Positions 4,407-23,885 of a stretch of 64,000 nt of DNA are shown here, piece by piece. Location: the NCBI GenBank assembly GCA_965199855.1, contig OZ241326.1:1024001-1088000 (forward strand). Direction: 5' to 3'. The translations under genes were made by a program, and so were the position numbers. The notes under the pieces were generated by a model that was not told where the DNA came from, ran no database searches, and saw only the letters and a list, made by a program, of their open reading frames with translations. This DNA is from a bacterium. Lineage in GTDB: Bacteria > UBA8248. Position 1 is the stretch's first letter, and each line of letters starts with the position of its first letter.

Positions 4407-5225
4407 ATGGTCAAAAAAAGGGGCATAAGTGACAGTTTGCGAGTTCTCGGTGTCGATTTAGCATCAAGAAGCTGGTCTGATAACGGCTCAGCGGTCCTTA
4501 CGTTCCAAAGTTCACCCCAGCCACAGTGGTTGTCCCTCGAATATGGATGTATTCGTTGGCCAGCCTCTGCCGTGACGGCTACCGCCATGGCCGAGGTCAT
4601 TCATTCTTATGTTACGGAAAAGCGACTCGACGCGGTTAGCCTTGATGGGCCCCAGGGGTGGCGAGAACCAAACGCTGGATCTCGACCAGGGGTTGGCCGA
4701 TGGTGTGAATACCTTTGCAAATGTCAAGGTAAAATGGGTGAATATGGCAAAATATACCCACGCAGCTACGGGACTTGGATACAGTTTTGTCTTGATGTTT
4801 TTGAGACGCTGCTAGAAAAAGGAGACGCCCGGTTGGTTAATGATGCCGATGTGAAAACCTTGGAGCTATTGAACGGACGCGGGTATTGGTTGCTGGAATG
4901 TTTCCCTACATCTATTTGGAAAACCAGCGGATTGAAGCCCTTGCCTGGAAAAAAGAAGCTCGCCGGAAATCCTCATGAAGTTTTCTCTTATGCAAGAGAC
5001 CTGAAACAGTCCTACAACTTGCCGAACCTTGAAGACTGGAAAGGGACGCATGACGATCTGCAAGCAGTTGTGGCTGCGTTGCCAGCCGCCGGTTTGCTAG
5101 GGGGGCCTTGTCGTCCGTTGCCGAAGGGGAAGCCCGGCAGATTCGTGGATATGTATGCGGATATCCCGCGGCATTGGGTCGAAGGTATCATTTGGGATAG
5201 TGAGCCGCTCAATAAAATAGATTGA
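4407..5225 (+). CDS. DUF429-like putative RNase H-fold nuclease (lower GC)
   Basis: VLGVDLA, SLDGPQGW, R.CE, LECFP and HDDLQAVVAAL motifs. Confidence 0.65.
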   Translation: MVKKRGISDSLRVLGVDLASRSWSDNGSAVLTFQSSPQPQWLSLEYGCIRWPASAVTATAMAEVIHSYVTEKRLDAVSLDGPQGWREPNAGSRPGVGRWCEYLCKCQGKMGEYGKIYPRSYGTWIQFCLDVFETLLEKGDARLVNDADVKTLELLNGRGYWLLECFPTSIWKTSGLKPLPGKKKLAGNPHEVFSYARDLKQSYNLPNLEDWKGTHDDLQAVVAALPAAGLLGGPCRPLPKGKPGRFVDMYADIPRHWVEGIIWDSEPLNKID

Positions 5226-5276: not shown

Positions 5277-6536
5277 CTATTCATCGGGCCCGAAATCGAA
5301 CGCGAGTTTTCCGTGCGCGGCGCGCAGGGCGGCCTCCGCCTCCTCGGGCCGCCGCCCCTTGGCGAAGATGAAGCCGAGATACCTGTCCCCCTCCGGCAGG
5401 GGCGTCACGCGGCCGCCGACGCGGATGGAGATCTCGATTCTCTCTACGCCGGGGACGGCGAGCGCCTCCGCCTCGCCGCGGACGCCCCTCAAAACGCCCC
5501 CGGCGGGAATGGGAATCATCATCACGCCCGAGGCGGCCTCCTCCCGCTCCAGGGAGGGCGGCGCGACGCCCAGCGCCTGGGACAATATGAGATGCTCGAG
5601 CGCGAGGCCGCCTCCGAATGAGAGGGCGCCCGAGCATTTCCCGCCGATGGATCGGCTCGCGGCGTCGATCACCCATACCTCGCCCGCGTCGTCGATTCGC
5701 AGCTCGGCGTGAAGCGGGCCCTCCCGCAGGCGAATCGCCCGGGCGGCGCGAACCGTCTCTTTGCGGATTTTGGCCTGCGTCTCATCGGGCAGCCGCGAGG
5801 GCGTGACGTAAATCGTTTCCTCAAAGAAGGGCCCCTCGAGCGGATCGGGCTTGTCGAAGATGGCGAGAACGTGAACCTCGCCCCGTATGACGAGTCCCTC
5901 CACCGCCGCCTCGACGCCCGGCAGGTAATCCTCCACCAGAATCATCCGCGCCTCCTCCCCGCCCCGGGCGAGGGTCTCCGGCTCCTCCAGGATGGCGGCG
6001 ACGCGGCGGTAGGCCTGGGCGAACTCCGCCTCGTCGTTCGCGCGAATCACGCCCCGGCTGGCCGAGAGAAACGTGGGCTTGAGCACGCAGGGGTAGCGGA
6101 CGGACGCCGCGATTCTCTCCGGCGCCTCCTGGGCGGAGACGAGACGGAAGGCGGGCGAGGGGAGGCCCTCCTCGGCGAGCGTTTTTCTGAGCTCGTATTT
6201 GCTTCTCGTGGCGCGGGCGGCCTCGACGGGGTGAAAGGGCAGGCCGAGCGACTCCGCCGCCATGGCCCCCAGGATGAGGGCGTCGTCGTCCACCGGCGCG
6301 ATAGCGTGGAGGGGAAACGACTTTGCGAACGATTCGATGAGGGCGGCGCCCGCCTCGGGGCGCGCGTAGTCCAGGGCGAGGGCGGCGCCCGTGTTCAGGT
6401 CGGCGAGAACATCCGGCCTGTCGGTTCCCACCGTAAGGAGCAACCCCATCTCCTCGGCCGCCGTCACGTAGGCGGAGGCGCGGTAGGTCGCCGTCGTCAT
6501 CAGGAGGAGGACGCGCTTCGCTTCCTCAGGCGGCAT
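5277..6536 (-). CDS. ATP-grasp domain protein (ligase of unknown specificity)
   Basis: SKYELR, YPCVLKP..SASRGV, EDYLPG.E, HAELR motifs. Confidence 0.85.
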   Translation of the reverse strand: MPPEEAKRVLLLMTTATYRASAYVTAAEEMGLLLTVGTDRPDVLADLNTGAALALDYARPEAGAALIESFAKSFPLHAIAPVDDDALILGAMAAESLGLPFHPVEAARATRSKYELRKTLAEEGLPSPAFRLVSAQEAPERIAASVRYPCVLKPTFLSASRGVIRANDEAEFAQAYRRVAAILEEPETLARGGEEARMILVEDYLPGVEAAVEGLVIRGEVHVLAIFDKPDPLEGPFFEETIYVTPSRLPDETQAKIRKETVRAARAIRLREGPLHAELRIDDAGEVWVIDAASRSIGGKCSGALSFGGGLALEHLILSQALGVAPPSLEREEAASGVMMIPIPAGGVLRGVRGEAEALAVPGVERIEISIRVGGRVTPLPEGDRYLGFIFAKGRRPEEAEAALRAAHGKLAFDFGPDE

Positions 6537-7305
6537 ACCATCCGCCGTCCACGAGGAGCGACGCGCCGGTGACCAGGCTGCTGGCGCTCGAGGCGAGGAA
6601 TATGGCCGGGCCGACGATCTCCTCCATCCGCCCGAAGCGCCCCATAGGCGTTCTCGCGCAGATGGCGTCGTGGATGAGCGCGTCCTCCTTGAGGGCGGCG
6701 GTGAGCGGCGTTTCGATGAAGGTGGGGCAGATGGCGTTCACCTGGATGTTCTCCTTCGCCCACTCGGAGGCGAACACGCGGGTGAGGCCGATGAGGCCGC
6801 TTTTCGAGGACGTGTAGGGCCCGTAGGTCTGCCCCCGGGGGTTTCGGAAGACCGACCAGCCCATGAGCGAGGCGACGTTGATCACCTTGCCGCCGCCCGC
6901 CTTCTTCATCTCCTCGCCCGCGCGCCGCGTGACGAAGAAGATGCTCTTGAGGTTCAGGTCGAGCACCCTGTCCCAGTCGTCCTCGGTCAGATCGGCGAGC
7001 GTCTTGCGCACGTTCGTGCCCGCGTTGTTCACCAGGATGGTGAGTCCGCCCAGCGCGTCCGCCGCCTCCTCCACCATGCGCTCGGCGTCCTCCGCCTCGG
7101 TCACGTCCGCCTGGATGAGCGCGCACTTGCGGCCCGCCTTCTCGATGGCCGCCTTCGCCTCCCCGGCGGGGGCGAGGTCGATGTCAGCGACGGCGACGTC
7201 CGCGCCGGCGGCGGCGAGACCCTCGGCCAGCGTTCGCCCGATGCCGCGCGCCGCGCCCGTGACGAGCGCCTTGCCCCCGCTCAGATCGAAAAGAGATTGG
7301 CTCAT
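6526..7305 (-). CDS. Short-chain dehydrogenase/reductase (KduD/IdnO-like)
   Basis: TGAARGIG, NNAG, YTSSK, NAICP motifs. Confidence 0.9.
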   Translation of the reverse strand: MSQSLFDLSGGKALVTGAARGIGRTLAEGLAAAGADVAVADIDLAPAGEAKAAIEKAGRKCALIQADVTEAEDAERMVEEAADALGGLTILVNNAGTNVRKTLADLTEDDWDRVLDLNLKSIFFVTRRAGEEMKKAGGGKVINVASLMGWSVFRNPRGQTYGPYTSSKSGLIGLTRVFASEWAKENIQVNAICPTFIETPLTAALKEDALIHDAICARTPMGRFGRMEEIVGPAIFLASSASSLVTGASLLVDGGWYAA

Positions 7306-7490: not shown

Positions 7491-9143
7491 ATGATGGCGG
7501 AAGCCCGGAAAAACGGCGCGGGAAAAGAGCGTCCCCTCCGCCCGGCGGCCTACAATTCGGGCAAGCCGGTGCCGGTGGTCTATGGGCCGGACGCCCCGGA
7601 CGCGGCCTATCGGGAGAAGCTCGGCGCGCCGGGAGAATACCCCTACACGCGCGGCATCTACCCCACCATGTATCGCGGCTCCCTGTGGGCGATGCGGCAG
7701 TATGCGGGCTTTTCCACTTCGGCGGACACCAACGCGCGCTTCCGCTTTCTGCTCGAAAACGGCCAGACGGGCCTCTCGATGGCCTACGACCTCCCCACCC
7801 AGCTGGGTCTCGACTCCGACGACGAGGCGGCCCGGGACGACGCGGGACGCCTGGGGGTCGCCGTGGACACCGCCGAGGACATGGCCGCCGTCTTCGAGGG
7901 CATTCCGCTGGACCGGGTGAGCGTCTCGCACACCATCAACTCCACCGCCGCCGTCATGGCGGCGTTCTGGCTGCTCGCCGCCGAGGCGCAGGGAGTCGCG
8001 CGGGAGAAGCTGCGCGGAACCTTTCAGAACGACATGCTCAAGGAATACATCGGCAGAGGAACCTGGATATTCCCGCCCCGCCCCTCCATGCGGCTCGTGG
8101 CCGACCTCATCGAATACAACGCGAGGCATTGCCCGCGCGTCAACGCCGTCAGCGTGTCCGCCACCCACATCGCCGAGACGGGCGCCACCCTCGCCCAGGA
8201 CGTGGCCTTTCCCCTCCTGAACGCCCTGGCCTACATCCGCGAGCTCGCCGCGCGCGGCCTCCACGTGGACGACTTCGTCCCCACCATGTCGTTCCATCTC
8301 TCCGTGGGGGGCGGGGTGGGGCCGTTCAACCTCTTCGAGTCGATCGGCAAGCTGCGGGCGGCGCGGCGCATCTGGGCGCGGACGATGAAGGAGAAATACG
8401 GCGCGAAGAATCCAAAGACCATGCAGCTCAGATTCTCGACGGGCAACTGCGGCAGCCGCATGGCGGCGCGCGAGCCGCTGAACAACATCGTGCGCCAGAC
8501 GCTCTTCACCTTGGCCGCCGTGCTGGGAGGCACGCGCTCGGTCAACATGGCCTGCTTCGACGAGGCGTTCGAGATTCCCTCGGAGGAGTCCATCCGCACG
8601 GCGCTGCGCATCCAGCAGGTGATCGCCCACGAGAGCGGCGTGGCCGACACCGTGGATCCCCTGGCGGGCAGCTACGCCCTGGAGTCGGTGACGGATCAGG
8701 TGGAGGAGGAGATTCAGGCCATCGTGGACGACTACGAGTCTCGCGGCGGCATCGTTCCCTTCATCGAGAGCGGCGAGATTCAGAGGCTTCTGGCGCGCCA
8801 GGCCTATGAGCACCAGCGCAGGATAGCGTCCGGCGAGCAGGCGTGGGTGGGCGTCAACAAATTCGCCTCCGGGGAGGACGACCGCATGAGCGAGGGCGAG
8901 GGTCTCCACGAGGCGGACGCTTCCGTCCTGGAGCGGCAGAGGGCGCGGCTGGAGGAGGCGAAGGCCGCCCGCGACCCGGCGGAGGTCGAGGCGCGGCTCG
9001 AAAAGCTGCGGCGGGCGTGCGAATCGGGCGAGAACCTGATGCCCGTCTTGATCGAGGCCGCCCGCGCGCGCCTCACGGTGGGCGAGATGACGGACGTGAT
9101 GCGCGGCGTCTTCGGCGCCTACGCCGAGCCGTCGGTGGTTTGA
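7491..9143 (+). CDS. B12-dependent acyl-CoA mutase, large (substrate-binding) subunit, atypical
   Basis: PGEYPYTRGIYPTMYRG, RQYAGF, GLSMAYDLPTQLG, QNDMLKEY, DEA, VDPLAGSY. Confidence 0.92.
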   Translation: MMAEARKNGAGKERPLRPAAYNSGKPVPVVYGPDAPDAAYREKLGAPGEYPYTRGIYPTMYRGSLWAMRQYAGFSTSADTNARFRFLLENGQTGLSMAYDLPTQLGLDSDDEAARDDAGRLGVAVDTAEDMAAVFEGIPLDRVSVSHTINSTAAVMAAFWLLAAEAQGVAREKLRGTFQNDMLKEYIGRGTWIFPPRPSMRLVADLIEYNARHCPRVNAVSVSATHIAETGATLAQDVAFPLLNALAYIRELAARGLHVDDFVPTMSFHLSVGGGVGPFNLFESIGKLRAARRIWARTMKEKYGAKNPKTMQLRFSTGNCGSRMAAREPLNNIVRQTLFTLAAVLGGTRSVNMACFDEAFEIPSEESIRTALRIQQVIAHESGVADTVDPLAGSYALESVTDQVEEEIQAIVDDYESRGGIVPFIESGEIQRLLARQAYEHQRRIASGEQAWVGVNKFASGEDDRMSEGEGLHEADASVLERQRARLEEAKAARDPAEVEARLEKLRRACESGENLMPVLIEAARARLTVGEMTDVMRGVFGAYAEPSVV

Positions 9144-9173
9144 CGGGGAGCGCGGCGGGGACGGGAGCCTGCG

Positions 9174-9599
9174 ATGAAGAGCGGAAGACGCATCCGCGTG
9201 CTGATGGCGAAGCCGGGCCTGGACGGGCACGACAGGGGGGTGAAGGTCGTCATCCACGCGCTCAGGGACGCCGGCATGGAGGTGATCTACTCGGGCCTCA
9301 GGCAGACGGTGGAGCAGATCGCGGCCGTCGCGGCCCAGGAGAACGTGGACGTGATAGGTCTGAGCGTGCTCTCGGGCTCCTACATGGGAATCGCGCGCAG
9401 GATGGCGGAGCGGATGCGGGAGGCGGGCCTCGAGGACTGCCTTCTCATTTTGGGCGGCAACATTCTGGCGCGCCACGTGGAGGAGCTCAGGGTCCTGGGC
9501 GTGGCCGAGGTTTTCAACCACCACGCGGACATGGCGGAGGTCGTCTCATACATCCGCGAGAACGCGGGCCGCGCCCGGGGGCGCCCCCCCGCCTTTTGA
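9174..9599 (+). CDS. Cobalamin-binding small subunit of acyl-CoA mutase
   Basis: KPGLDGHDRG (DxHxxG), SVLSG and GG motifs. Confidence 0.92.
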   Translation: MKSGRRIRVLMAKPGLDGHDRGVKVVIHALRDAGMEVIYSGLRQTVEQIAAVAAQENVDVIGLSVLSGSYMGIARRMAERMREAGLEDCLLILGGNILARHVEELRVLGVAEVFNHHADMAEVVSYIRENAGRARGRPPAF

Positions 9600-9610
9600 A
9601 GGGGGAGATT

Positions 9611-10804
9611 TTGGAAAAACCGCTCGAGGGCGTCCGCATCCTCGACCTTTCCGCCCTGCTCGCCGGCCCCTACGGCAGCATGGTGCTGGCCGATCTGGGC
9701 GCGGACGTCATCAAGATAGAAGCGCCGGGGCGGGGCGACCTCGTCCGCACCATGCCCCCGCACTACGTGGGGGAGACGAGCGCCTACTTCATCGCCCTGA
9801 ACAGGAACAAGCGGGGCGTGTCCCTGAACCTGAAGGACGAAGAGGGCTATCGCGTCTTCCGCGAGCTGGTGAGGCGCTCGGACGTCGTCTACGACAACTA
9901 CCGCCCCGGCGTTCTCGAGCGGCTGGGGGCGGACTACGAGACGCTCAGGCGGGCGAACCCCCGCATCATCAGCGCTTCCGTCACCGGCTACGGACTCACC
10001 GGCCCGCAGAAGGACAAGCCCGCCCTCGACCTCATCATCCAGGGGCGCGGCGGCATCATGAGCTTCACCGGCGAGCCGGGCAGGCCGCCCGTGCGCCTGG
10101 GCGCGCCCATGGGGGACATCGGCGGCGGCCTGTTCGCCGCCCACGGGATTCTCGCGGCGCTCTACAGGCGCGAGCGGACGGGCGTCGGCCAGAAGGTGGA
10201 CGTCTCGCTCCTGGACTGCCAGCTGTATCTCTCCAGCTACCGCGCGCAGTATTATCTGACGGCGGGCGAGGTGGCGAAGCCCATGGGCACGGGCCACGCC
10301 TCCGCCGTTCCCATCGGCGCGTATCGATGCGGCGACGGCAGATGGCTCGTGCTCGACGCGATTCTGGATCATTTCTTCCAGGGCCTCTGCGACGCTCTGG
10401 ATCATCCCGAATGGAAGGACGACCCCCGGATGAAGGATCGCCCGGCGCGCCTCGAGAACCGCGAATACGTGGACGCGAAGCTCGCCGAGGCGTTCGGGAC
10501 GGACTCCGCGGCGCGCTGGATAGAGAAAATCGAGGCGCGCGGCGTTCCCTGCGGGCCGATTCAGGGCATCGACGAGGCGCTGAACGACCCCCAGACGCGG
10601 GCGCGCGAGATGGTGGTGGAGATGGCGCACCCCGAGCTCGGCGCGATGGAGACCTTCAACACGCCGGTCAAGATGGAGGGCACCTGGGGGGCGGCTCCCT
10701 CGCCGCCTCCCCTCATGGGCGAGCACACCGCGGAGGTGCTCCGGGAGACGCTTGACCTGAATGATGAGGACATCGCGCGGCTCAAAGAGCGCGGGGCGAT
10801 TTGA
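9611..10804 (+). CDS. Family III (CaiB/BaiF) CoA-transferase
   Basis: PLEGVRILDLS, LADLGADVIKIE, NRNKR, NYRPG, catalytic Asp in PMGDIGGG; TTG start after GGAG. Confidence 0.92.
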   Translation: MEKPLEGVRILDLSALLAGPYGSMVLADLGADVIKIEAPGRGDLVRTMPPHYVGETSAYFIALNRNKRGVSLNLKDEEGYRVFRELVRRSDVVYDNYRPGVLERLGADYETLRRANPRIISASVTGYGLTGPQKDKPALDLIIQGRGGIMSFTGEPGRPPVRLGAPMGDIGGGLFAAHGILAALYRRERTGVGQKVDVSLLDCQLYLSSYRAQYYLTAGEVAKPMGTGHASAVPIGAYRCGDGRWLVLDAILDHFFQGLCDALDHPEWKDDPRMKDRPARLENREYVDAKLAEAFGTDSAARWIEKIEARGVPCGPIQGIDEALNDPQTRAREMVVEMAHPELGAMETFNTPVKMEGTWGAAPSPPPLMGEHTAEVLRETLDLNDEDIARLKERGAI

Positions 10805-11601
10805 GGGGCGTCGTGTTCCGGGACAGGAAGGCTTTCGTGTTCGACCTGGAAGGGGTGTTCTTCGCCGGAGGCGAGGTGATGCCCGGCGGCCGGGAGCTGA
10901 TGCGCGCCCTCAAGGAAAGAGACCTTCCACGACGCTTCATCACGAACATCAGCCGCAGCACGGCGGCCGAGGTTCGCGCCCACATGGCGGGGCTCGGCGT
11001 TGACCCTGGCGAGAACCTCATCGTGAGCGCGCTCGACCGCGTCGGGGCTTTTTTGAGAAAGACCTGCGGGTCGGGCCGCGCCTACGTGCTGGGGACGGAC
11101 GCGCTCAAGAGCGCCGCCGCCTCGGGCGGCTTCGAGGCGGTGGGCGAGGACGAGGCGGAGAGCGCCGACGTCGTCCTGGTCGGCCTGGACGAGCGCCTCA
11201 CCTACCGCACGCTGAGCGCAGCCGCCCGGGCGGTGAGCCGAGGGGCGCGCTTCGTCGCCATGAACCCCGACGTGCGCCTGCCGCGCGAGGACGGCTCGTT
11301 CTCCCTCGGCGGCGGCGCCATCGTGGCGGCCGTGCGTGCGGCGGCGGGCAGGGAGCCTGTGTTCTTCGGGAAGCCCGAGCCCTTTCTGTTCGAGGAGGCG
11401 CTGGCGGAGCTGGGCGTGGAGGGGCGCGAGGCCGTCATGGTGGGCGACAACCTGAGAACCGACATCGCGGGCGGCAGAGACATGGGAATGGCCACCGTCT
11501 GGGTGAACCGCTGGGGAGCGATAGCGGGAGATCCGGACGCGCCGGCGGATCTCGAGGTGAAGCGGGTCGATGAACTGATTCCGCATCTGCCGGGCGGATG
11601 A
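10801..11601 (+). CDS. HAD-IIA (NagD-like) hydrolase
   Basis: FDLEGV motif I variant, ITN, GKPEP, VGDNLRTDI. Confidence 0.85.
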   Translation: MRGVVFRDRKAFVFDLEGVFFAGGEVMPGGRELMRALKERDLPRRFITNISRSTAAEVRAHMAGLGVDPGENLIVSALDRVGAFLRKTCGSGRAYVLGTDALKSAAASGGFEAVGEDEAESADVVLVGLDERLTYRTLSAAARAVSRGARFVAMNPDVRLPREDGSFSLGGGAIVAAVRAAAGREPVFFGKPEPFLFEEALAELGVEGREAVMVGDNLRTDIAGGRDMGMATVWVNRWGAIAGDPDAPADLEVKRVDELIPHLPGG

Positions 11602-11623
11602 CGGCGCGGGAGAGAGAAGAGGC

Positions 11624-11883
11624 GTGGAGCGGATTCCGCATGAAGTGAGGGACAGGCTGGCCTCCATCACGCTGGCCAGGCCGGAAAAGAAAACGCGATC
11701 AACCGAGGGATGACCGCGCGCGCTTCCGCGCTTTTCGCCGAAGTCGAGCGCGACCCCGAGGCTTGGGGCTGTCTCATCACGGGCGCAGGGGACGTGATTG
11801 TGAAGCGTCTCCTCAATGCCGGGGACGCCGCCAAGGGCGTCCGGGCGTTCAAGGAGAGGAGTCCGCCCCGCTTCCAGGGCAGG
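11624..11883 (+). pseudogene. Enoyl-CoA hydratase (crotonase) remnant with frameshift and large internal deletion
   Basis: N-terminus VERIPHEVRDRLASITLARPEK/NAINRGM..DPEAWGCLITGAGD joined directly to the C-terminus GDAAKGVRAFKERSPPRFQGR; one A missing near 11690. Confidence 0.75.
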
Positions 11884-11937
11884 CCAGGATGCTTCCGTCC
11901 TCCCCCGCTCCATCCATTTCCGGCAAAGGAGACCCCG

Positions 11938-13098
11938 GTGAATTTCGACCTCACGGATTCCCAGAAGCGGATTCAGCAGAAGGCTCGCGAGGTCGCCGCG
12001 CGAGAGATAGCGCCCAAGGCGGCGCTTTGGGATCGCACCGAAGAATACCCTTGGGAGAACGTCCGAATCCTCGCGGAGGCGGGCTTCATGGGCATGAACG
12101 TTCCCGGGGAATATGGCGGGCCGGAGCGTCCGCTCATCGAGGCCGTCCTGGTGGTCGAGGAGATGGCGAAGGTCTGCGGCATCACGGGGCGCATCGTTGT
12201 GGACGCCAATATGGGGGTGGTGGGGGCCATCGTCCGCTACGGAACCGAGGCGCAGAAGAGGAAGTATCTGCCCATGGTGATCGAAGGGGACAAGCCCGCC
12301 ATCGCCATCACCGAACCCGAGGCGGGGAGCGCCGCCACCGACATGACGACGCGCGCCGCGCTCGACGGCGGCGAATACGTCCTGAACGGAAGGAAGAAGT
12401 GGATCACCGGCGCGGGCGTCTCCCGCGTCAACCTCGTGTTCGCCCGCGTCGTCCATGGAGGAGAGGAGCAGGGAATCGGCGCTCTCATCGTAGAGCTGGG
12501 CGCCGAGGGCTTCCGCGTCGGGGAGCGCGCCTGGATGATGGGCTTGAGGGGAATCCCCGAAGGGGAGGAAATTTTCGAGAACTGCCGCGTGCCCGCGGAA
12601 AACCTGGTGACGGTGGGCTTCGGGCGCCTCATGGCCGCCTACAACGCCCAGCGGGTGGGCGCGGGGACGGTGGCTTTAGGCATCGCCGAGGGCGCCTTCG
12701 CGCAGGCGGTGGCGTACGCCGGCGAGCGCGAGCAGTTCGGCCGCCCGATTGCGGAGTTTCAGGGGCTTCAGTGGATGCTGGCGGACGCGCGCATCCAGCT
12801 CGACGCCGCGCGGCTCCTGCTCCATCGCGCGGCGGTTCGGCAGGACCCGAAAACGGGGTTTCCCGACGTGAGCCTGGCCGCCATCGCCAAGACGTTCTCG
12901 GCGGAGGCCGCGATCCGGGTGACGAACGACGCCCTCCAGATTTTCGGCGCGGCGGGCTACGCGCGCGATCTGCCGCTCGAGCGCATGGCGCGCGACGCGC
13001 GGATGTTCACCATCGGCGGCGGCACCACCCAGGCGCAACGCAACGTCATCGCCTCGGGCATCTTCGGCAGAAAATTCTCGCAGCGCCGCGGCGGGTAG
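11938..13098 (+). CDS. acdA: 3-sulfinopropionyl-CoA desulfinase-like member of the acyl-CoA dehydrogenase family
   Basis: YPWENV, GRIVVDANMG, GDKPAI, MGLRGIPE, YNAQRVGAG, RDARMFTIGGGT match my recollection of Advenella/Variovorax Acd; no catalytic Glu; GTG start after AAAGGAG. Confidence 0.8.
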   Translation: MNFDLTDSQKRIQQKAREVAAREIAPKAALWDRTEEYPWENVRILAEAGFMGMNVPGEYGGPERPLIEAVLVVEEMAKVCGITGRIVVDANMGVVGAIVRYGTEAQKRKYLPMVIEGDKPAIAITEPEAGSAATDMTTRAALDGGEYVLNGRKKWITGAGVSRVNLVFARVVHGGEEQGIGALIVELGAEGFRVGERAWMMGLRGIPEGEEIFENCRVPAENLVTVGFGRLMAAYNAQRVGAGTVALGIAEGAFAQAVAYAGEREQFGRPIAEFQGLQWMLADARIQLDAARLLLHRAAVRQDPKTGFPDVSLAAIAKTFSAEAAIRVTNDALQIFGAAGYARDLPLERMARDARMFTIGGGTTQAQRNVIASGIFGRKFSQRRGG

Positions 13099-13149: not shown

Positions 13150-14370
13150 CTAGCCGTATTGGAGGATCATGCCCGTCAGACCGCATTCGATGCAGCCGGC
13201 CACCTCGATGCAGCGCGAGTTCGCGGGCGGCATCACCACGCCGGTGATGCCCTCGCGGTAGAACCGCTCAAAGGGATAGCGCCGCGCGATGGAGCGTCCC
13301 CCCACGAGCCGCATCGCGCGCTGCACCGCCTTGGCGCAAATTTCGCAGGAGACGTATTTCGACTGCATGACGGTCTTCACCGTGTTCTGGTTCGCCATGC
13401 CGTCGCCCTGCTCCTTCACGTGGCACGCCTCGTAGAGAAGCATCCGCGCGGCGCGAAGCTCGGCGCTCAGCTCGCCTATCGCGCTCTGGTAGAGCTCGTT
13501 GTGGCTCAGGGGCTCCGGGTTGGGCGCGTATTTCGTCGTCCTCACGTAGTCCACCAGGTGCCCGTAGGCGCCCTCCGCGATGCCCAGATAGGCGGCGGAA
13601 AACCCGAGGTGAAACATGGTGATGTCGATCTTCCCCAGTGCGCCGATGAAGTTCTCTCCGCCCAGGATGTCCTCGTCCGGCACGAAGGCGTCCTCGAAGA
13701 GGATGTCGTCGCTCGCCGTTCCGCGCATCGACATGGTGTCCCACACCACCTCCACCGACGCCCCGGGCGCGTCCTTGCGTATGACGGCGGTCATGATGGC
13801 TTCGCCGGCGGTTTTCTTTCCCGCCAGGAAGCCGGTGGTGAAGTAGTAGTCGGCGTGCTCGCCCACCGAGGCGGAAATCTTCCTTCCGTTCAGGCGATAG
13901 CCGCCCTCGACGGGGGTGAAGATGCTCTTGAGCGTCACCAGGTGGCGGAAGCTCATGCCCCGCTCCGCCGTGACGGAGGAGAAGAGCTTGCCGTTTTCGG
14001 TGACGTCGGGAAGCACCCGCTTTTTCTGCTCTTCGTTCGCCAGGGCGAAGAAGAGGCTCACGCAGGTCTGGTGCATGTTCCAGGTGAGGGCGGTGGAGGC
14101 GCACGCCTTGCCCAGTTCGTGGAGCGCCATGTTGTAGGTGAGGGAGTTCGCGCCCGCCCCGCCCCATTCCTCGGGGATGCACACGGCGTTCAGGCCCGCC
14201 TCGTTGAGCAACTGGAAGTTTTCGACGGGGAAGCGCCCCTCTCGGTCGATCTCGGCCGCCAGCTCGGCGATCCGCGGCGTCAGGGACTTCACCTTGTCCA
14301 GGATTTCCCTGTCGTATTTCAGCTCCATCAGCGTTTCGTAGGATTCACTCGCCGCGGCATCGGAACCCAT
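13150..14370 (-). CDS. Acyl-CoA dehydrogenase-fold flavoprotein lacking the canonical Glu
   Basis: LNGRK, WDTMSMRGTASDD, ERFYRE..VVMPP. Confidence 0.8.
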   Translation of the reverse strand: MGSDAAASESYETLMELKYDREILDKVKSLTPRIAELAAEIDREGRFPVENFQLLNEAGLNAVCIPEEWGGAGANSLTYNMALHELGKACASTALTWNMHQTCVSLFFALANEEQKKRVLPDVTENGKLFSSVTAERGMSFRHLVTLKSIFTPVEGGYRLNGRKISASVGEHADYYFTTGFLAGKKTAGEAIMTAVIRKDAPGASVEVVWDTMSMRGTASDDILFEDAFVPDEDILGGENFIGALGKIDITMFHLGFSAAYLGIAEGAYGHLVDYVRTTKYAPNPEPLSHNELYQSAIGELSAELRAARMLLYEACHVKEQGDGMANQNTVKTVMQSKYVSCEICAKAVQRAMRLVGGRSIARRYPFERFYREGITGVVMPPANSRCIEVAGCIECGLTGMILQYG

Positions 14371-14475
14371 CGCATCCCCTCCCCGCGTCAAAGAGAAAAT
14401 CAGTTCGTTTCGGCCGCGCGGCGTCCTTTCCCGCCGGGAGAGGAAGGATCGATTCTCCCGAAAGCGCCTTTTCGT

Positions 14476-14504
14476 TTGACAGCGCACTGTCACAGAATTA
14501 TAAG
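14476..14504 (+). promoter_or_regulatory. Sigma70 promoter with overlapping palindromic operator
   Basis: TTGACA-17 bp-TATAAG; perfect TGACAG-CGCA-CTGTCA inverted repeat at 14477-14492. Confidence 0.65.
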
Positions 14505-14573
14505 GGAAAATTAAGCAAAAAGATAAGATCGGTTTTTTGTTGAGCGCCGCGGCGAGGGAAGCGATTGCCTGTT

Positions 14574-15584
14574 ATGAGCAAAATCGACAGTCTTTTGAAC
14601 ACCATTCAATGCGGTGATTCAACGCTGATATTGAAAACCATCCCCGACGACAGTATAGACCTCGTTGTTACCTCGCCTCCGTATTACATGCAGAGAGATT
14701 ACAACGATATGGGGCTCGGGACGGGGCATGAGAGCGCAGTCGATAAATACATCGATTCACTGCTCGAAACATTCGAGGAAGTGATACGGGTCCTGAAATC
14801 GACCGGAAACATCATTTACAACATCGGCGACAAGTATATCGGCAGTTCGCTTTTGCTTGTCCCGTATAGATTCGCCATAAGCGCGACAAGGCGGTATCCG
14901 ATTCGTCTCATCAACGATATAACGTGGGTGAAGCGAAACCCGACGCCCCGCCAGTTTGCCCGCCGATTGGTCAGCGGCACCGAGCCGTTCTTTCATTTTG
15001 CCAAAGGGTCGGACTACTATTACGATTTGGAAAATTTCCTTAAGTGTGAAGATAAGGACAAACGCCCCGCTCCGACCGGTCGGATGGGGGAGCGGTACAG
15101 ATCGTTGATAGCGCAGTCGAACCTGTCTGACGCCCAGAAGCGAAGGGCGAACGAGTCTTTGGACAACGCCATTCGGGAGGTGACGCGCGGGGAAATTCAG
15201 AGTTTTCGCATGAAGATCAAGGGAATACACGCGGAGGCTTTTGGCGGCCAGGAAGGCGGCAGGAAACTGCAAATGGACAACAACGGCTTCACTATAATCA
15301 GAATACATGGAAAAAAGATGAAAAAAGACGTCATCGATTCGCCGGTGGAGTCGATTCCCGGAATGAGGCATACGGCGATATTCCCTCTTTCAATTATACG
15401 AGAGCTCGTCAAATTGCTTTCCCCGATGGAGGGGGTCGTCTTGGACCCCTATATTGGAAGCGGAACTACCGCCATTGCCGCGCTGGAGGAAGGCCGTGAT
15501 TACATAGGAATCGACATAGATTCTCACTATTGCGGTCTCGTCCTCGACAGAATAGAGAAATGCAAAAAGAAAAGCGCTTGTTAG
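14574..15584 (+). CDS. Beta-class amino-DNA methyltransferase (probably N4-cytosine)
   Basis: Motif IV VTSPPY precedes motif I DPYIGSGTT; HTAIFP; lower GC. Confidence 0.9.
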   Translation: MSKIDSLLNTIQCGDSTLILKTIPDDSIDLVVTSPPYYMQRDYNDMGLGTGHESAVDKYIDSLLETFEEVIRVLKSTGNIIYNIGDKYIGSSLLLVPYRFAISATRRYPIRLINDITWVKRNPTPRQFARRLVSGTEPFFHFAKGSDYYYDLENFLKCEDKDKRPAPTGRMGERYRSLIAQSNLSDAQKRRANESLDNAIREVTRGEIQSFRMKIKGIHAEAFGGQEGGRKLQMDNNGFTIIRIHGKKMKKDVIDSPVESIPGMRHTAIFPLSIIRELVKLLSPMEGVVLDPYIGSGTTAIAALEEGRDYIGIDIDSHYCGLVLDRIEKCKKKSAC

Positions 15585-16687
15585 AGCATTTGTTTCGGGA
15601 GTCCGCGACCGATCCCCCGGAAAGCGGTTTGCGGCCTGGGATGCTTGAACAGCGGCCGCTGCTCGACCTGATAGTGGACAGTGCCTGCCGCGGGAGAAAC
15701 AAGGCCGCTCTGGCCGTGACTATTACGTTGCTCTTACGAAAGGCGACTCACCCCAAGCAGGATATTCGTCTTCATCAGGCTGGAATGGAGAATGGGTTTT
15801 CTGGCAGAGGTCTGGATGAAAGGGTTGTAACTCCGTTTTTGAGAGAGCAGAGCTTTCCATTCATGGGATCGGGTTCCGGATGGCTGACAAGATCGTTTGA
15901 GCAGGCGCATCCTTACAATCTCGATTATCCCGGCAAAATAACTCCCGTGGCGTTAAGAGATGCTTTCCTGAACGTCATCAACGAAGTGGAAAAGGAAAAG
16001 CATTTTGATTTTGCATCGGATCATTTGCGGTACGTCTTCTGTCGATTGAGGAAATGGCGCGAACAAAACTCTGCTCTCAAGTTGGCGAAGCCTACGAACA
16101 GGCGCATTGAAGAGATCATAGCCCTCGTCAAAAAGCATTGGGACAGTGAGTTGCCCGGAGTCGCCAAGCTCCCCGTTCTGGCCGTTTATGCGGTGTATGA
16201 ATGCCTGATTTCAGAAGTTTCGAGATACAGAGATTGTCGGTTGCGCGATTTGCTCCCTCATACCGCCGCCGATGCCAGGACAGAACGACTGGGTGATGTC
16301 GATATCGAAAGCCGCGTTGATGGAGGCGCAATCGAGGCCATCGAGATCAAGCATGGATTGACCATCAATGCTTCCTTGATAAGAACCCTGCGGGACAAAA
16401 TCGCGAAAGCGGGAGTAAAGCGTTTTTATATTCTAAGCACCAGGGAGGACATAGACTCGAATGATCTGACGGAAATGACGAATATGCTGATTGACATCAG
16501 AAGGAATTACGGGTGCCAAGTTATACTGAATGGAGTATCGAACAGCATAAAATACTATCTTCGCCTGCTGTCCGATACCGACAGGTTTTTAATCAACTAC
16601 GTCTCCATGGTTGAGGCAGACGCGGATATCCCTTTCACCTTGAAAAGCCGGTGGAATGAAATCATCGACTCGCATCAAGAGAGTTAG
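15560..16687 (+). CDS. Putative type II restriction endonuclease
   Basis: Overlaps the MTase stop; GDVDI..EAIEIK PD-(D/E)xK-like motif; lower GC. Confidence 0.7.
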   Translation: MQKEKRLLEHLFRESATDPPESGLRPGMLEQRPLLDLIVDSACRGRNKAALAVTITLLLRKATHPKQDIRLHQAGMENGFSGRGLDERVVTPFLREQSFPFMGSGSGWLTRSFEQAHPYNLDYPGKITPVALRDAFLNVINEVEKEKHFDFASDHLRYVFCRLRKWREQNSALKLAKPTNRRIEEIIALVKKHWDSELPGVAKLPVLAVYAVYECLISEVSRYRDCRLRDLLPHTAADARTERLGDVDIESRVDGGAIEAIEIKHGLTINASLIRTLRDKIAKAGVKRFYILSTREDIDSNDLTEMTNMLIDIRRNYGCQVILNGVSNSIKYYLRLLSDTDRFLINYVSMVEADADIPFTLKSRWNEIIDSHQES

Positions 16688-23141: not shown

Positions 23142-23885
23142 TCACTTCCAGCCCGACGGCCCGAAAATCAGAAGGGCGAGCCCCGCCGCCGTCATCAGCG
23201 CGAGGCCGCCCGCGTAGCCGAGAGCGGGCGGGAGGCGTCCGCGCAGCAGCCTCCCCGCGGCAAAACCGGCGAGGGCGGGCGGAACGCACGCGGCCGAGCG
23301 CGCGGCTTCGGCTATGCCCAGCGCGCCCGCGCCGCCCAGCGCGGCCACCTGAACGACGGCGAACGCCAGCGCGCTCGCGCAGACGAGCCGCATCATCCGG
23401 GCGCGGCCGACGCCCGCGCTGTCGAGGTAGATGACGCTCAAGGGGCCTCCGGAGAAGGAAAAGCCGCTCAGGCCGCCGGCGAAAAAGCCGGCGAGCCATG
23501 TGAAGAAGGCCTCGTCCCGCGTGTCGAGCTGGATTCTTCGGCGCGAGAGGGCGTGAGCGGCGAAAAGGAGCGCGAGCGCGCCCACCGACCACTTGAGGAA
23601 CGTGGGCGGACTCGAAACGAGAATCAGGACGCCCAGCGCCGCCCCCGCCGCGCCCGCGCCGAGAAAGGGCGCGAGGCGCCTGAGCGAGGCGGCGGGAACC
23701 CCGCCGCCGGCGGCGCGAACGCCCAGCAGGACGAGATTCGGAAGCGAGAGGGCGAGCACGGAATCGCGCACGCCGAGGATGGCGCCGAGCGCGGGCGCGG
23801 CCATGAGGCCGAAGTCGAAGCCCGCCGCGCCCTCCATGAGCCCCGCGGCGAAGACGAGAAGCGCGATGTCCCAGGATGGCCACAT
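23142..23885 (-). CDS. TauE/SafE-family membrane protein
   Basis: Multiple TM helices, GFDFGL and GGP repeats. Confidence 0.7.
   Translation of the reverse strand: MWPSWDIALLVFAAGLMEGAAGFDFGLMAAPALGAILGVRDSVLALSLPNLVLLGVRAAGGGVPAASLRRLAPFLGAGAAGAALGVLILVSSPPTFLKWSVGALALLFAAHALSRRRIQLDTRDEAFFTWLAGFFAGGLSGFSFSGGPLSVIYLDSAGVGRARMMRLVCASALAFAVVQVAALGGAGALGIAEAARSAACVPPALAGFAAGRLLRGRLPPALGYAGGLALMTAAGLALLIFGPSGWK

Follow-up and report, generated by a model that had tools for sequence, protein, structure and literature searches.

A 3-sulfinopropionyl-CoA desulfinase-type gene beside a split acyl-CoA mutase module in a bacterium of the UBA8248 lineage

The stretch of DNA analysed here (the window) is 64,000 nucleotides long and covers positions 1,024,001 to 1,088,000 of contig OZ241326.1 (assembly GCA_965199855.1, GTDB lineage UBA8248). 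Positions 7491 to 13098 of the window hold a run of genes for a two-subunit, B12-dependent acyl-CoA mutase, a CoA-transferase, a HAD hydrolase, a broken crotonase and a protein with the acyl-CoA dehydrogenase (ACAD) fold that resembles 3-sulfinopropionyl-CoA (3SP-CoA) desulfinase, here called Acd. The original prediction, made from the letters alone, read this run as a new organosulfinate pathway in which the mutase rearranges a branched sulfinoacyl-CoA to 3SP-CoA before Acd releases sulfite. The best explanation we can offer, held with middling confidence, is a plainer one: two modules lie side by side in one genus, and the mutase would act after sulfite release, recycling propionyl-CoA. A new B12 reaction on sulfur compounds at this locus is unlikely.

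Real genes were chosen by GC content at the third codon position, the window being GC-rich, and were then confirmed with Pfam and NCBIfam. The six genes of the predicted run are present and co-directional, all of them plus-strand open reading frames (ORFs) with high third-position GC. Together with their immediate neighbours they are as follows.

5277 to 6536, minus strand: ATP-grasp protein, L-amino-acid-ligase-like (Pfam ATP-grasp_4 and LAL_C2), divergent from the mutase operon
6526 to 7305, minus strand: short-chain dehydrogenase/reductase, SDR (Pfam adh_short_C2, E 6e-62), divergent from the mutase operon
7491 to 9143, plus strand: acyl-CoA mutase large subunit, mutL (PF01642, E 6.9e-178; TIGR00641, 600 bits)
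9174 to 9599, plus strand: B12-binding small subunit, mutS (PF02310; TIGR00640, 126 bits against a cut-off of 57; DGHDRG motif)
about 9611 to 10804, plus strand: family III CoA-transferase, act (PF02515, E 1.2e-132)
10801 to 11601, plus strand: HAD-IIA hydrolase, had (TIGR01460, 140 bits against a cut-off of 100)
11633 to 11883, plus strand: pseudogene of a crotonase (enoyl-CoA hydratase, ech), found by tblastn with the intact 251-residue gene of locus L119
11938 to 13098, plus strand: acd, 3SP-CoA-desulfinase-type ACAD-fold protein (5af7, E 1.2e-125; NF042439, 550 bits)
13150 to 14493, minus strand: second, divergent ACAD-fold protein (Pfam ACAD domains), convergent with acd

The transferase probably starts at the TTG at 9611, which is preceded by GGGGGAG. 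The acd gene starts with GTG, preceded by AAGGAG.

The gene at 11938 to 13098 is supported as a close relative of 3SP-CoA desulfinase, which upholds the name it had first been given. Its translation has the three-domain ACAD fold (Pfam Acyl-CoA_dh_N, _M and _1). Among solved structures it matches 5af7/5ahs best (422 bits; the next match reaches 6e-81 and 275 bits), which we take to be the Advenella desulfinase, the PDB title reading just 'acyl-CoA dehydrogenase'. The best NCBIfam model is SulpropCoADesulf (NF042439), with the next model at 348 bits, and homologues of 78% and 62% identity carry the JGI product name '3-sulfinopropanoyl-CoA desulfinase'.

The residues point the same way. In a HMMER alignment to 5af7, with residues counted by hand, GRIVVDAN supplies the equivalent of Arg84 and YNAQRVG that of Gln246, confirming the signature read from the letters; presumably these two residues have the catalytic roles of their counterparts in the Advenella enzyme, AcdDPN7. 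The same alignment bears out the Ala that had been noted at the position of Cys122. The protein is, as predicted, without the catalytic Glu of ordinary ACADs, since the Glu of their YEGT motif aligns with Gly (IGGGTTQ; alignment to 5ol2). At what we take to be the catalytic Glu site of the isovaleryl-CoA dehydrogenase (IVD) type, YNAQRVG carries Gln, not Glu. Among the 120 best database homologues, which span 60-98% identity, the Arg84 equivalent is present in 119 and both the Gln246 equivalent and Gly-for-Glu in all 120. Position 122 is Ala in 43 of these, Val in 48 and Cys in 29, and because it varies in this way Cys122 is probably not a defining residue of the desulfinase family. PMC9293079 confirms for the desulfinase that it has no catalytic glutamate.

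AcdDPN7 of Advenella mimigardefordensis (5af7/5ahs, NF042439) and the window's Acd have in common the ACAD fold, the Arg84 and Gln246 equivalents and Gly for Glu. The likeness extends to the neighborhood, as PMC5373536 and PMC6370202 place a family III CoA-transferase and a crotonase near the genes for AcdDPN7 and for AcdA of Variovorax paradoxus TBEA6, as in the window. There are also differences. The window's Acd scores below the equivalog cut-off of NF042439 (550 against 600 bits) and has Ala for Cys122. No mdo gene adjoins acd, a CDO_I gene being found ~545 kb off, and the nearby transferase is part of the mutase module. Advenella and Variovorax are betaproteobacteria, whereas the host of the window belongs to a sponge/marine lineage. 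Advenella sends propionyl-CoA to the methylcitrate cycle, according to PMC5373536/PMC6370202.

Residues and relatives make a methylmalonyl-CoA mutase (MCM) the most likely identity of the mutase. Its best solved structure is HcmA (4r3u), a 2-hydroxyisobutyryl-CoA mutase (HCM), at 461 bits; human MCM reaches 398 bits. In an alignment to the MCM of P. shermanii (1req, chain index plus one), Tyr89, Gln197, Arg207 and His244 are kept, and we take these to be the ligands of the substrate carboxylate and thioester. MCM Tyr243 is replaced by Thr225. Thr stands at this position in all 120 of the top mutase homologues, and the other four residues are invariant in the same 120. The enzyme therefore belongs to a large 'Thr243' split-mutase subfamily and is not a singular one.

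With MCM (P. shermanii 1req; human 2xij) the window's enzyme shares PF01642, the B12-binding subunit with its DxHxxG motif and the four ligand residues. It differs from MCM in having split subunits, Thr for Tyr243, a 5-residue insert at 272-276 and 'FSTG' where MCM and HCM show 'HCQT'; neither MeaB nor an epimerase gene adjoins it. With HcmA it shares the split architecture. Ile90 and Asp117 of HcmA, presumably its specificity determinants, are Tyr71 and Ala98 in the window's mutase, and Arg207 is present where HcmA has Gln. The isobutyryl-CoA mutase signature, which we take to be Phe for Tyr89 and Gln for Arg207, is absent, as the mutase keeps Tyr and Arg and its IcmF score is just 268 bits. 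On the fused-MCM equivalog NF006944 it scores 516, short of 876.

The genome that holds the window has three mutase large subunits: a canonical one (GYH) at 907 kb, one with GAH at 1.45 Mb, and the window's own with ATH. The paralogue at 1.45 Mb has Ala at the Tyr243 position. There are just two B12-binding small subunits for the three large ones, and MeaB lies apart from all of these genes (positions 907 kb, 1.357 Mb, 1.45 Mb and 2.00 Mb).

The gene neighbors of the Thr243 subfamily argue for a methylmalonyl-CoA pathway. A Thr243-specific DNA pattern matched every orthologue in hand and none of 80 canonical-type loci (44-52% identity). The 80 metagenome loci listed by a scan with this pattern (L151-L230, many of them truncated) make up our subfamily sample, in which neighbors were sought by tblastn and other ORFs were clustered. 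In 39 of the 80 listed loci the gene immediately next to the mutase encodes a homologue of the window's transferase (48-57% identity, or 36-40% for a few cut fragments); within the genome of the window itself, no paralogue of the transferase exceeds 44% identity. A methylmalonyl-CoA epimerase cluster is found in 16 loci (an example reaches 120.3 bits on TIGR03081, cut-off 114.95), an mmdA-type carboxyltransferase in 15, ScpC-type transferases in 7 + 5 (an example reaches 505 bits on NF053853, cut-off 500) and a Na+-decarboxylase beta subunit in 4. Abbreviating carboxyltransferase as CT, epimerase as MCE and decarboxylase beta as OADbeta, the gene orders include act-mutL-mutS-CT-MCE (L170, L206, L220) and ScpC-mutL-mutS-OADbeta-CT-MCE (L151, L189). 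Such orders are those of the succinate/propionate (methylmalonyl-CoA) pathway, with the family III transferase at the ScpC position. The family III enzyme looks like a non-orthologous replacement of the ScpC-type succinate/propionate CoA-transferase. An Acd-like neighbor was found in none of the 80 listed loci by tblastn, and ACAD matches were seen in 5, all at 31-38% identity.

The mutase relatives at L151 and L189 sit in operons of the known succinate-to-propionate type (ScpC, MCM, epimerase and Na+-pumping methylmalonyl-CoA decarboxylase). In contrast, epimerase and carboxyltransferase genes are not adjacent in the window's own clade. The step from the subfamily's context to MCM function in the window is good but not certain, because a long branch separates the window's clade from its sisters, the clades with methylmalonyl operons.

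The original prediction had taken the transferase for the activating partner of Acd. The family III fold stands (PF02515), and the partnership does not, the conserved partner being the mutase, as in the 39 listed loci. The best PDB match of the transferase is succinate-hydroxymethylglutarate CoA-transferase, and it reaches no NCBIfam equivalog (best 288 bits against a cut-off of 700). It is most likely a succinyl-CoA/propionyl-CoA-dependent acid CoA-transferase, and it is a candidate activator of 3-sulfinopropionate (3SP).

The locus was compared across 19 Acd loci, namely those of 17 of the genus's 19 Acd-positive genomes (G016 and G022, with short contigs, were excluded) and those of G037 and G039. 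The order of the divergent atp-grasp/sdr pair followed by mutL-mutS-act-had-ech-acd is whole in 16 of the 17 loci from the genus. Its three smallest genomes (G000, G024 and G034) differ in which part of the cluster has been lost.

The sequence between had and acd had been described as a crotonase remnant, and comparison with the intact crotonase of L119 (7841-8596) confirms it. By tblastn it matches codons 4-22 and 22-56 of the 251-residue gene in two frames and then codons 220-251. It is a pseudogene because of a frameshift near codon 22 and an internal deletion of codons ~57-219 (~163 codons). The contigs of four public runs show the same deletion, which is therefore not an assembly error. 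Of the 17 genus loci, 16 keep a full-length ech gene, and G024 has a different partial ech deletion.

The second ACAD-fold gene lies on the other side of acd and is its neighbor in 15 of the 17 loci from the genus as well as in G037. Its product matches ordinary ACADs and flavin monooxygenases of the DszC/SfnB type about equally distantly, with weak and mixed NCBIfam and PDB scores, and its translation, read by eye, shows no EGT glutamate motif. Oxidation of a sulfur compound is a possible role.

In the explanation we favor, module A (mutL, mutS, the family III CoA-transferase and the HAD gene) would be an old, conserved unit, and module B (crotonase, acd and the second ACAD-fold gene) would carry the 3SP-CoA desulfinase. 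The transferase would move CoA from succinyl-CoA onto 3SP, a succinate analogue. Acd would then cleave 3SP-CoA to propionyl-CoA and sulfite, and the propionyl-CoA would be carboxylated and epimerised by the products of genes elsewhere in the genome. The mutase would finally regenerate succinyl-CoA, the CoA donor. Since the mutase comes after Acd in this cycle, its substrate would be an ordinary carboxylate, not a sulfinate. Precedent for the first steps is found in PMC6370202 and PMC5373536, where 3-mercaptopropionate is converted to 3SP by Mdo, 3SP is activated by SucCD or a succinyl-CoA-dependent Act, and Acd yields propionyl-CoA and sulfite.

Several pieces that this cycle calls for are present in the window's genome away from the locus: a carboxyltransferase gene at 2.60 Mb, epimerase-like genes, and MeaB at 2.00 Mb. 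A CDO_I-family thiol dioxygenase (G000:C1:481355-481666), which could make a sulfinate from a thiol, is unlinked to acd. Of the genus's 22 genomes, 21 have the CDO_I gene; the exception is G034, which is also the only complete genome of the genus to lack Acd. As evidence for a link with Acd this distribution is weak, because the gene is also common where Acd is absent.

An independent setting for Acd is found in a Rokubacteria-type phylum. In L042, a Rokubacteria-labelled metagenome-assembled genome, a 59% identical Acd-like gene lies close to the beta subunit of propionyl-CoA carboxylase (PCC) and a canonical mutase. Acd-like genes of the Arg/Gln/Gly signature family (55-65% identity) occur in 82 of 201 genomes sampled from this phylum, a tally that includes two unpublished genomes (G084 and G113). 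Their being so common in a soil phylum raises the question of the source of 3SP-CoA there. Twenty of these loci (L303-L322; G051 and relatives) were picked for long contigs. PCC beta lies within 8 kb of the Acd-like gene in 5 of them, and a canonical SGYH mutase in 4. In 8 the Acd-like gene directly follows E2-E3 genes, and the one such operon checked (L312) is of the pyruvate dehydrogenase type, E1ab-E2-E3. No homologue of the family III transferase act was found in any of the 20 loci. The neighborhood fits disposal of propionyl-CoA via methylmalonyl-CoA, not a special sulfinate mutase.

A number of observations weigh against the recycling cycle. The substrates, the direction of flux and the functional link between the modules are all things we infer from family assignments, residues, synteny and patterns of presence and absence. 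The score of Acd below its equivalog cut-off and the replacement of Cys122 count on this side, as does the spread of the CDO_I gene, which is unlinked and occurs in 36 of the family's 42 genomes, far more than carry Acd. The HAD, SDR and ATP-grasp genes are constant in the window's clade and are left unexplained by the two-module model. The remaining points concern the tie between the modules and the identity of the mutase.

The tie between the modules is loose outside one genus. Among 51 genomes of the window's phylum searched with both proteins, 21 have both this mutase type and Acd, 7 have the mutase type without Acd (G028, G034, G010, G011, G013, G038 and G041, from four genera), one has Acd without the mutase type (G024) and 22 have neither. 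The co-occurrence of mutase, transferase and acd that the original prediction proposed as a check is accordingly not conserved beyond the genus, with 7 of the 28 mutase-bearing genomes lacking Acd and no Acd-like neighbor in the 80 listed subfamily loci. G024 has lost mutL, mutS and most of act and has kept had and acd. G034 has the mutase module and lacks ech, acd and the second ACAD-fold gene. In G039 the module lies at 0.76 Mb and a 58% identical Acd-like gene at 3.66 Mb on a contig of 3.68 Mb, unlinked and ~780 kb apart. G037 has the module and acd on different contigs, with acd between an amidase and a thiamine pyrophosphate (TPP) enzyme and no mutase in the 13 kb examined. G038, which is 93% complete, has the module and no Acd, and this mutase type is the only one it shows at E <= 1e-100. 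The adjacency of the two modules amounts to a single event in a single genus, and either module persists where the other is missing. Being separable, they need not work together. A gap of ~400 nt separates ech and acd in the relatives, and with such a gap acd may have its own promoter.

In a rival explanation the modules are simply unrelated neighbors, a propionate/succinate module beside which an ech-acd block with the second ACAD-fold gene was inserted in the genus ancestor, with no pathway in common. The independent presence and absence over the 51 genomes, the origin of every adjacency case in a single genus, the gap before acd in the relatives and the setting of acd in G037 all suit this explanation. 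On the other hand, the propionyl-CoA that Acd yields and the CoA donor that it requires are what the adjoining module makes or consumes (chemistry from PMC6370202 and PMC5373536), and the Rokubacteria-type phylum has an independent Acd-MCM-PCC neighborhood. We regard mere neighborhood as rather unlikely, though it is the strongest competitor of the recycling cycle.

The second set of observations concerns the mutase itself. The window's clade (at least 72% identity) branches in the tree as a long-branched sister to clades with methylmalonyl-pathway neighbors, and 27 substitutions are specific to it, among them Gly188 (beside Arg207), Glu361 and a novel Arg323, as well as an insert 2 residues longer. 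Epimerase and carboxyltransferase neighbors were never found in this clade; MeaB and decarboxylase genes beside the mutase are likewise absent in the window and its clade, while epimerase, carboxyltransferase and decarboxylase neighbors are present in the sister clades. With a canonical GYH mutase and a third paralogue already in the genome, a further MCM looks redundant.

It could be, then, that the clade's mutase is not an MCM and rearranges another dicarboxylyl-CoA, such as a substituted succinyl-CoA of the kind proposed for IaaGH with IaaL, and that the HAD, SDR and ATP-grasp proteins belong to that pathway. These three are constant neighbors in this clade alone, where epimerase and carboxyltransferase are lacking: they accompany just a few of the listed loci, all with a mutase of at least 72% identity, the HAD gene follows the transferase only in the mutase's own clade (including L190 and L222), and the ATP-grasp gene adjoins the mutase operon in the genus loci, G034, G039, L156, L222 and L226. 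Thr243, Gly188, Arg323 and the longer insert could alter the pocket. There is a precedent for a cluster of transferase, mutase and ACAD in auxin degradation, since PMC8360864 describes IaaL (family III transferase), IaaGH (mutase) and IaaF (ACAD) in the iaa cluster of Aromatoleum aromaticum, the same three families as in the window. In that source, however, IaaF is a decarboxylating dehydrogenase, unlike the window's ACAD-fold protein, which is without the catalytic Glu. Moreover, Thr243 is common to relatives in clear methylmalonyl-CoA operons, and the sole mutase found in G038 suits a housekeeping MCM. We consider a change of substrate of this kind improbable.

Slimmer still is the chance that this non-MCM enzyme acts on some other anionic acyl-CoA, possibly a sulfinate- or otherwise substituted analogue of succinyl-CoA, in sponge-associated bacteria, and that the genus-wide ech-acd linkage marks a real organosulfur pathway. 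Such a reading draws on Thr243, Gly188, Arg323, Glu361, the longer insert and the constant pairing with the transferase, HAD, SDR and ATP-grasp genes.

The model of the original prediction itself, a new B12 mutase that converts a branched sulfinoacyl-CoA such as 2-sulfinopropionyl-CoA to 3SP-CoA upstream of Acd, is very improbable: the adjacency in 16 of the 17 genus loci, a divergent mutase clade with its own substitutions, a separate canonical mutase in the genome, and the kept carboxylate-binding Tyr89 and Arg207, which could bind a sulfinate, all speak for it, but the module occurs without Acd in 7 of 28 genomes, Acd outlives mutase and transferase in G024 and lies ~780 kb from the module in G039, none of the 80 listed subfamily loci has an Acd-like neighbor, the catalytic-site signature is identical to that of relatives in methylmalonyl-CoA operons, Acd-like genes elsewhere pair with canonical MCM and PCC beta, and we know of no natural source of 2-sulfinopropionate. 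An ordinary-looking MCM and an unconserved linkage, two outcomes that the prediction had itself named as telling against it, are largely what we found.

If the ordinary reading is true, the 3SP-CoA desulfinase family reaches beyond a few soil betaproteobacteria into uncultured lineages. The locus suggests a closed succinyl-CoA cycle for taking sulfite off 3SP, a product of 3-mercaptopropionate. 3-Mercaptopropionate, and hence 3SP, possibly comes from the breakdown of dimethylsulfoniopropionate (DMSP). DNA nearly identical to the window's (57-80% of sampled words) is present in sequencing runs from two studies labelled sponge metagenome and one labelled marine metagenome, and all of it in runs of coded organisms. 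The NCBI labels on close homologues read 'Nitrospinae', 'Nitrospinota' or 'Tectomicrobia' bacterium. The large and apparently unstudied subfamily of Thr243 split MCMs with a dedicated family III CoA-transferase may outweigh the original claim in usefulness, as may the abundance of Acd-like genes in the Rokubacteria-type phylum.

Some features lie around the locus. A 272-residue ORF of lower GC (0.57) and without a Pfam match lies at 4407-5222 on the plus strand, between a NifU-like gene and the ATP-grasp gene. A low-GC island (52-55%) at 14565-16687, between the ACAD genes and a 2-hydroxyacid dehydrogenase gene, holds an N6/N4 DNA methylase and a 385-residue ORF without a Pfam match, and probably represents a mobile restriction-modification island. 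A gene at 23142-23885 on the minus strand, some 10 kb downstream from acd, encodes a membrane protein of the TauE/SafE ('sulfite exporter') family, at 55.7 bits against a cut-off of 32.6.

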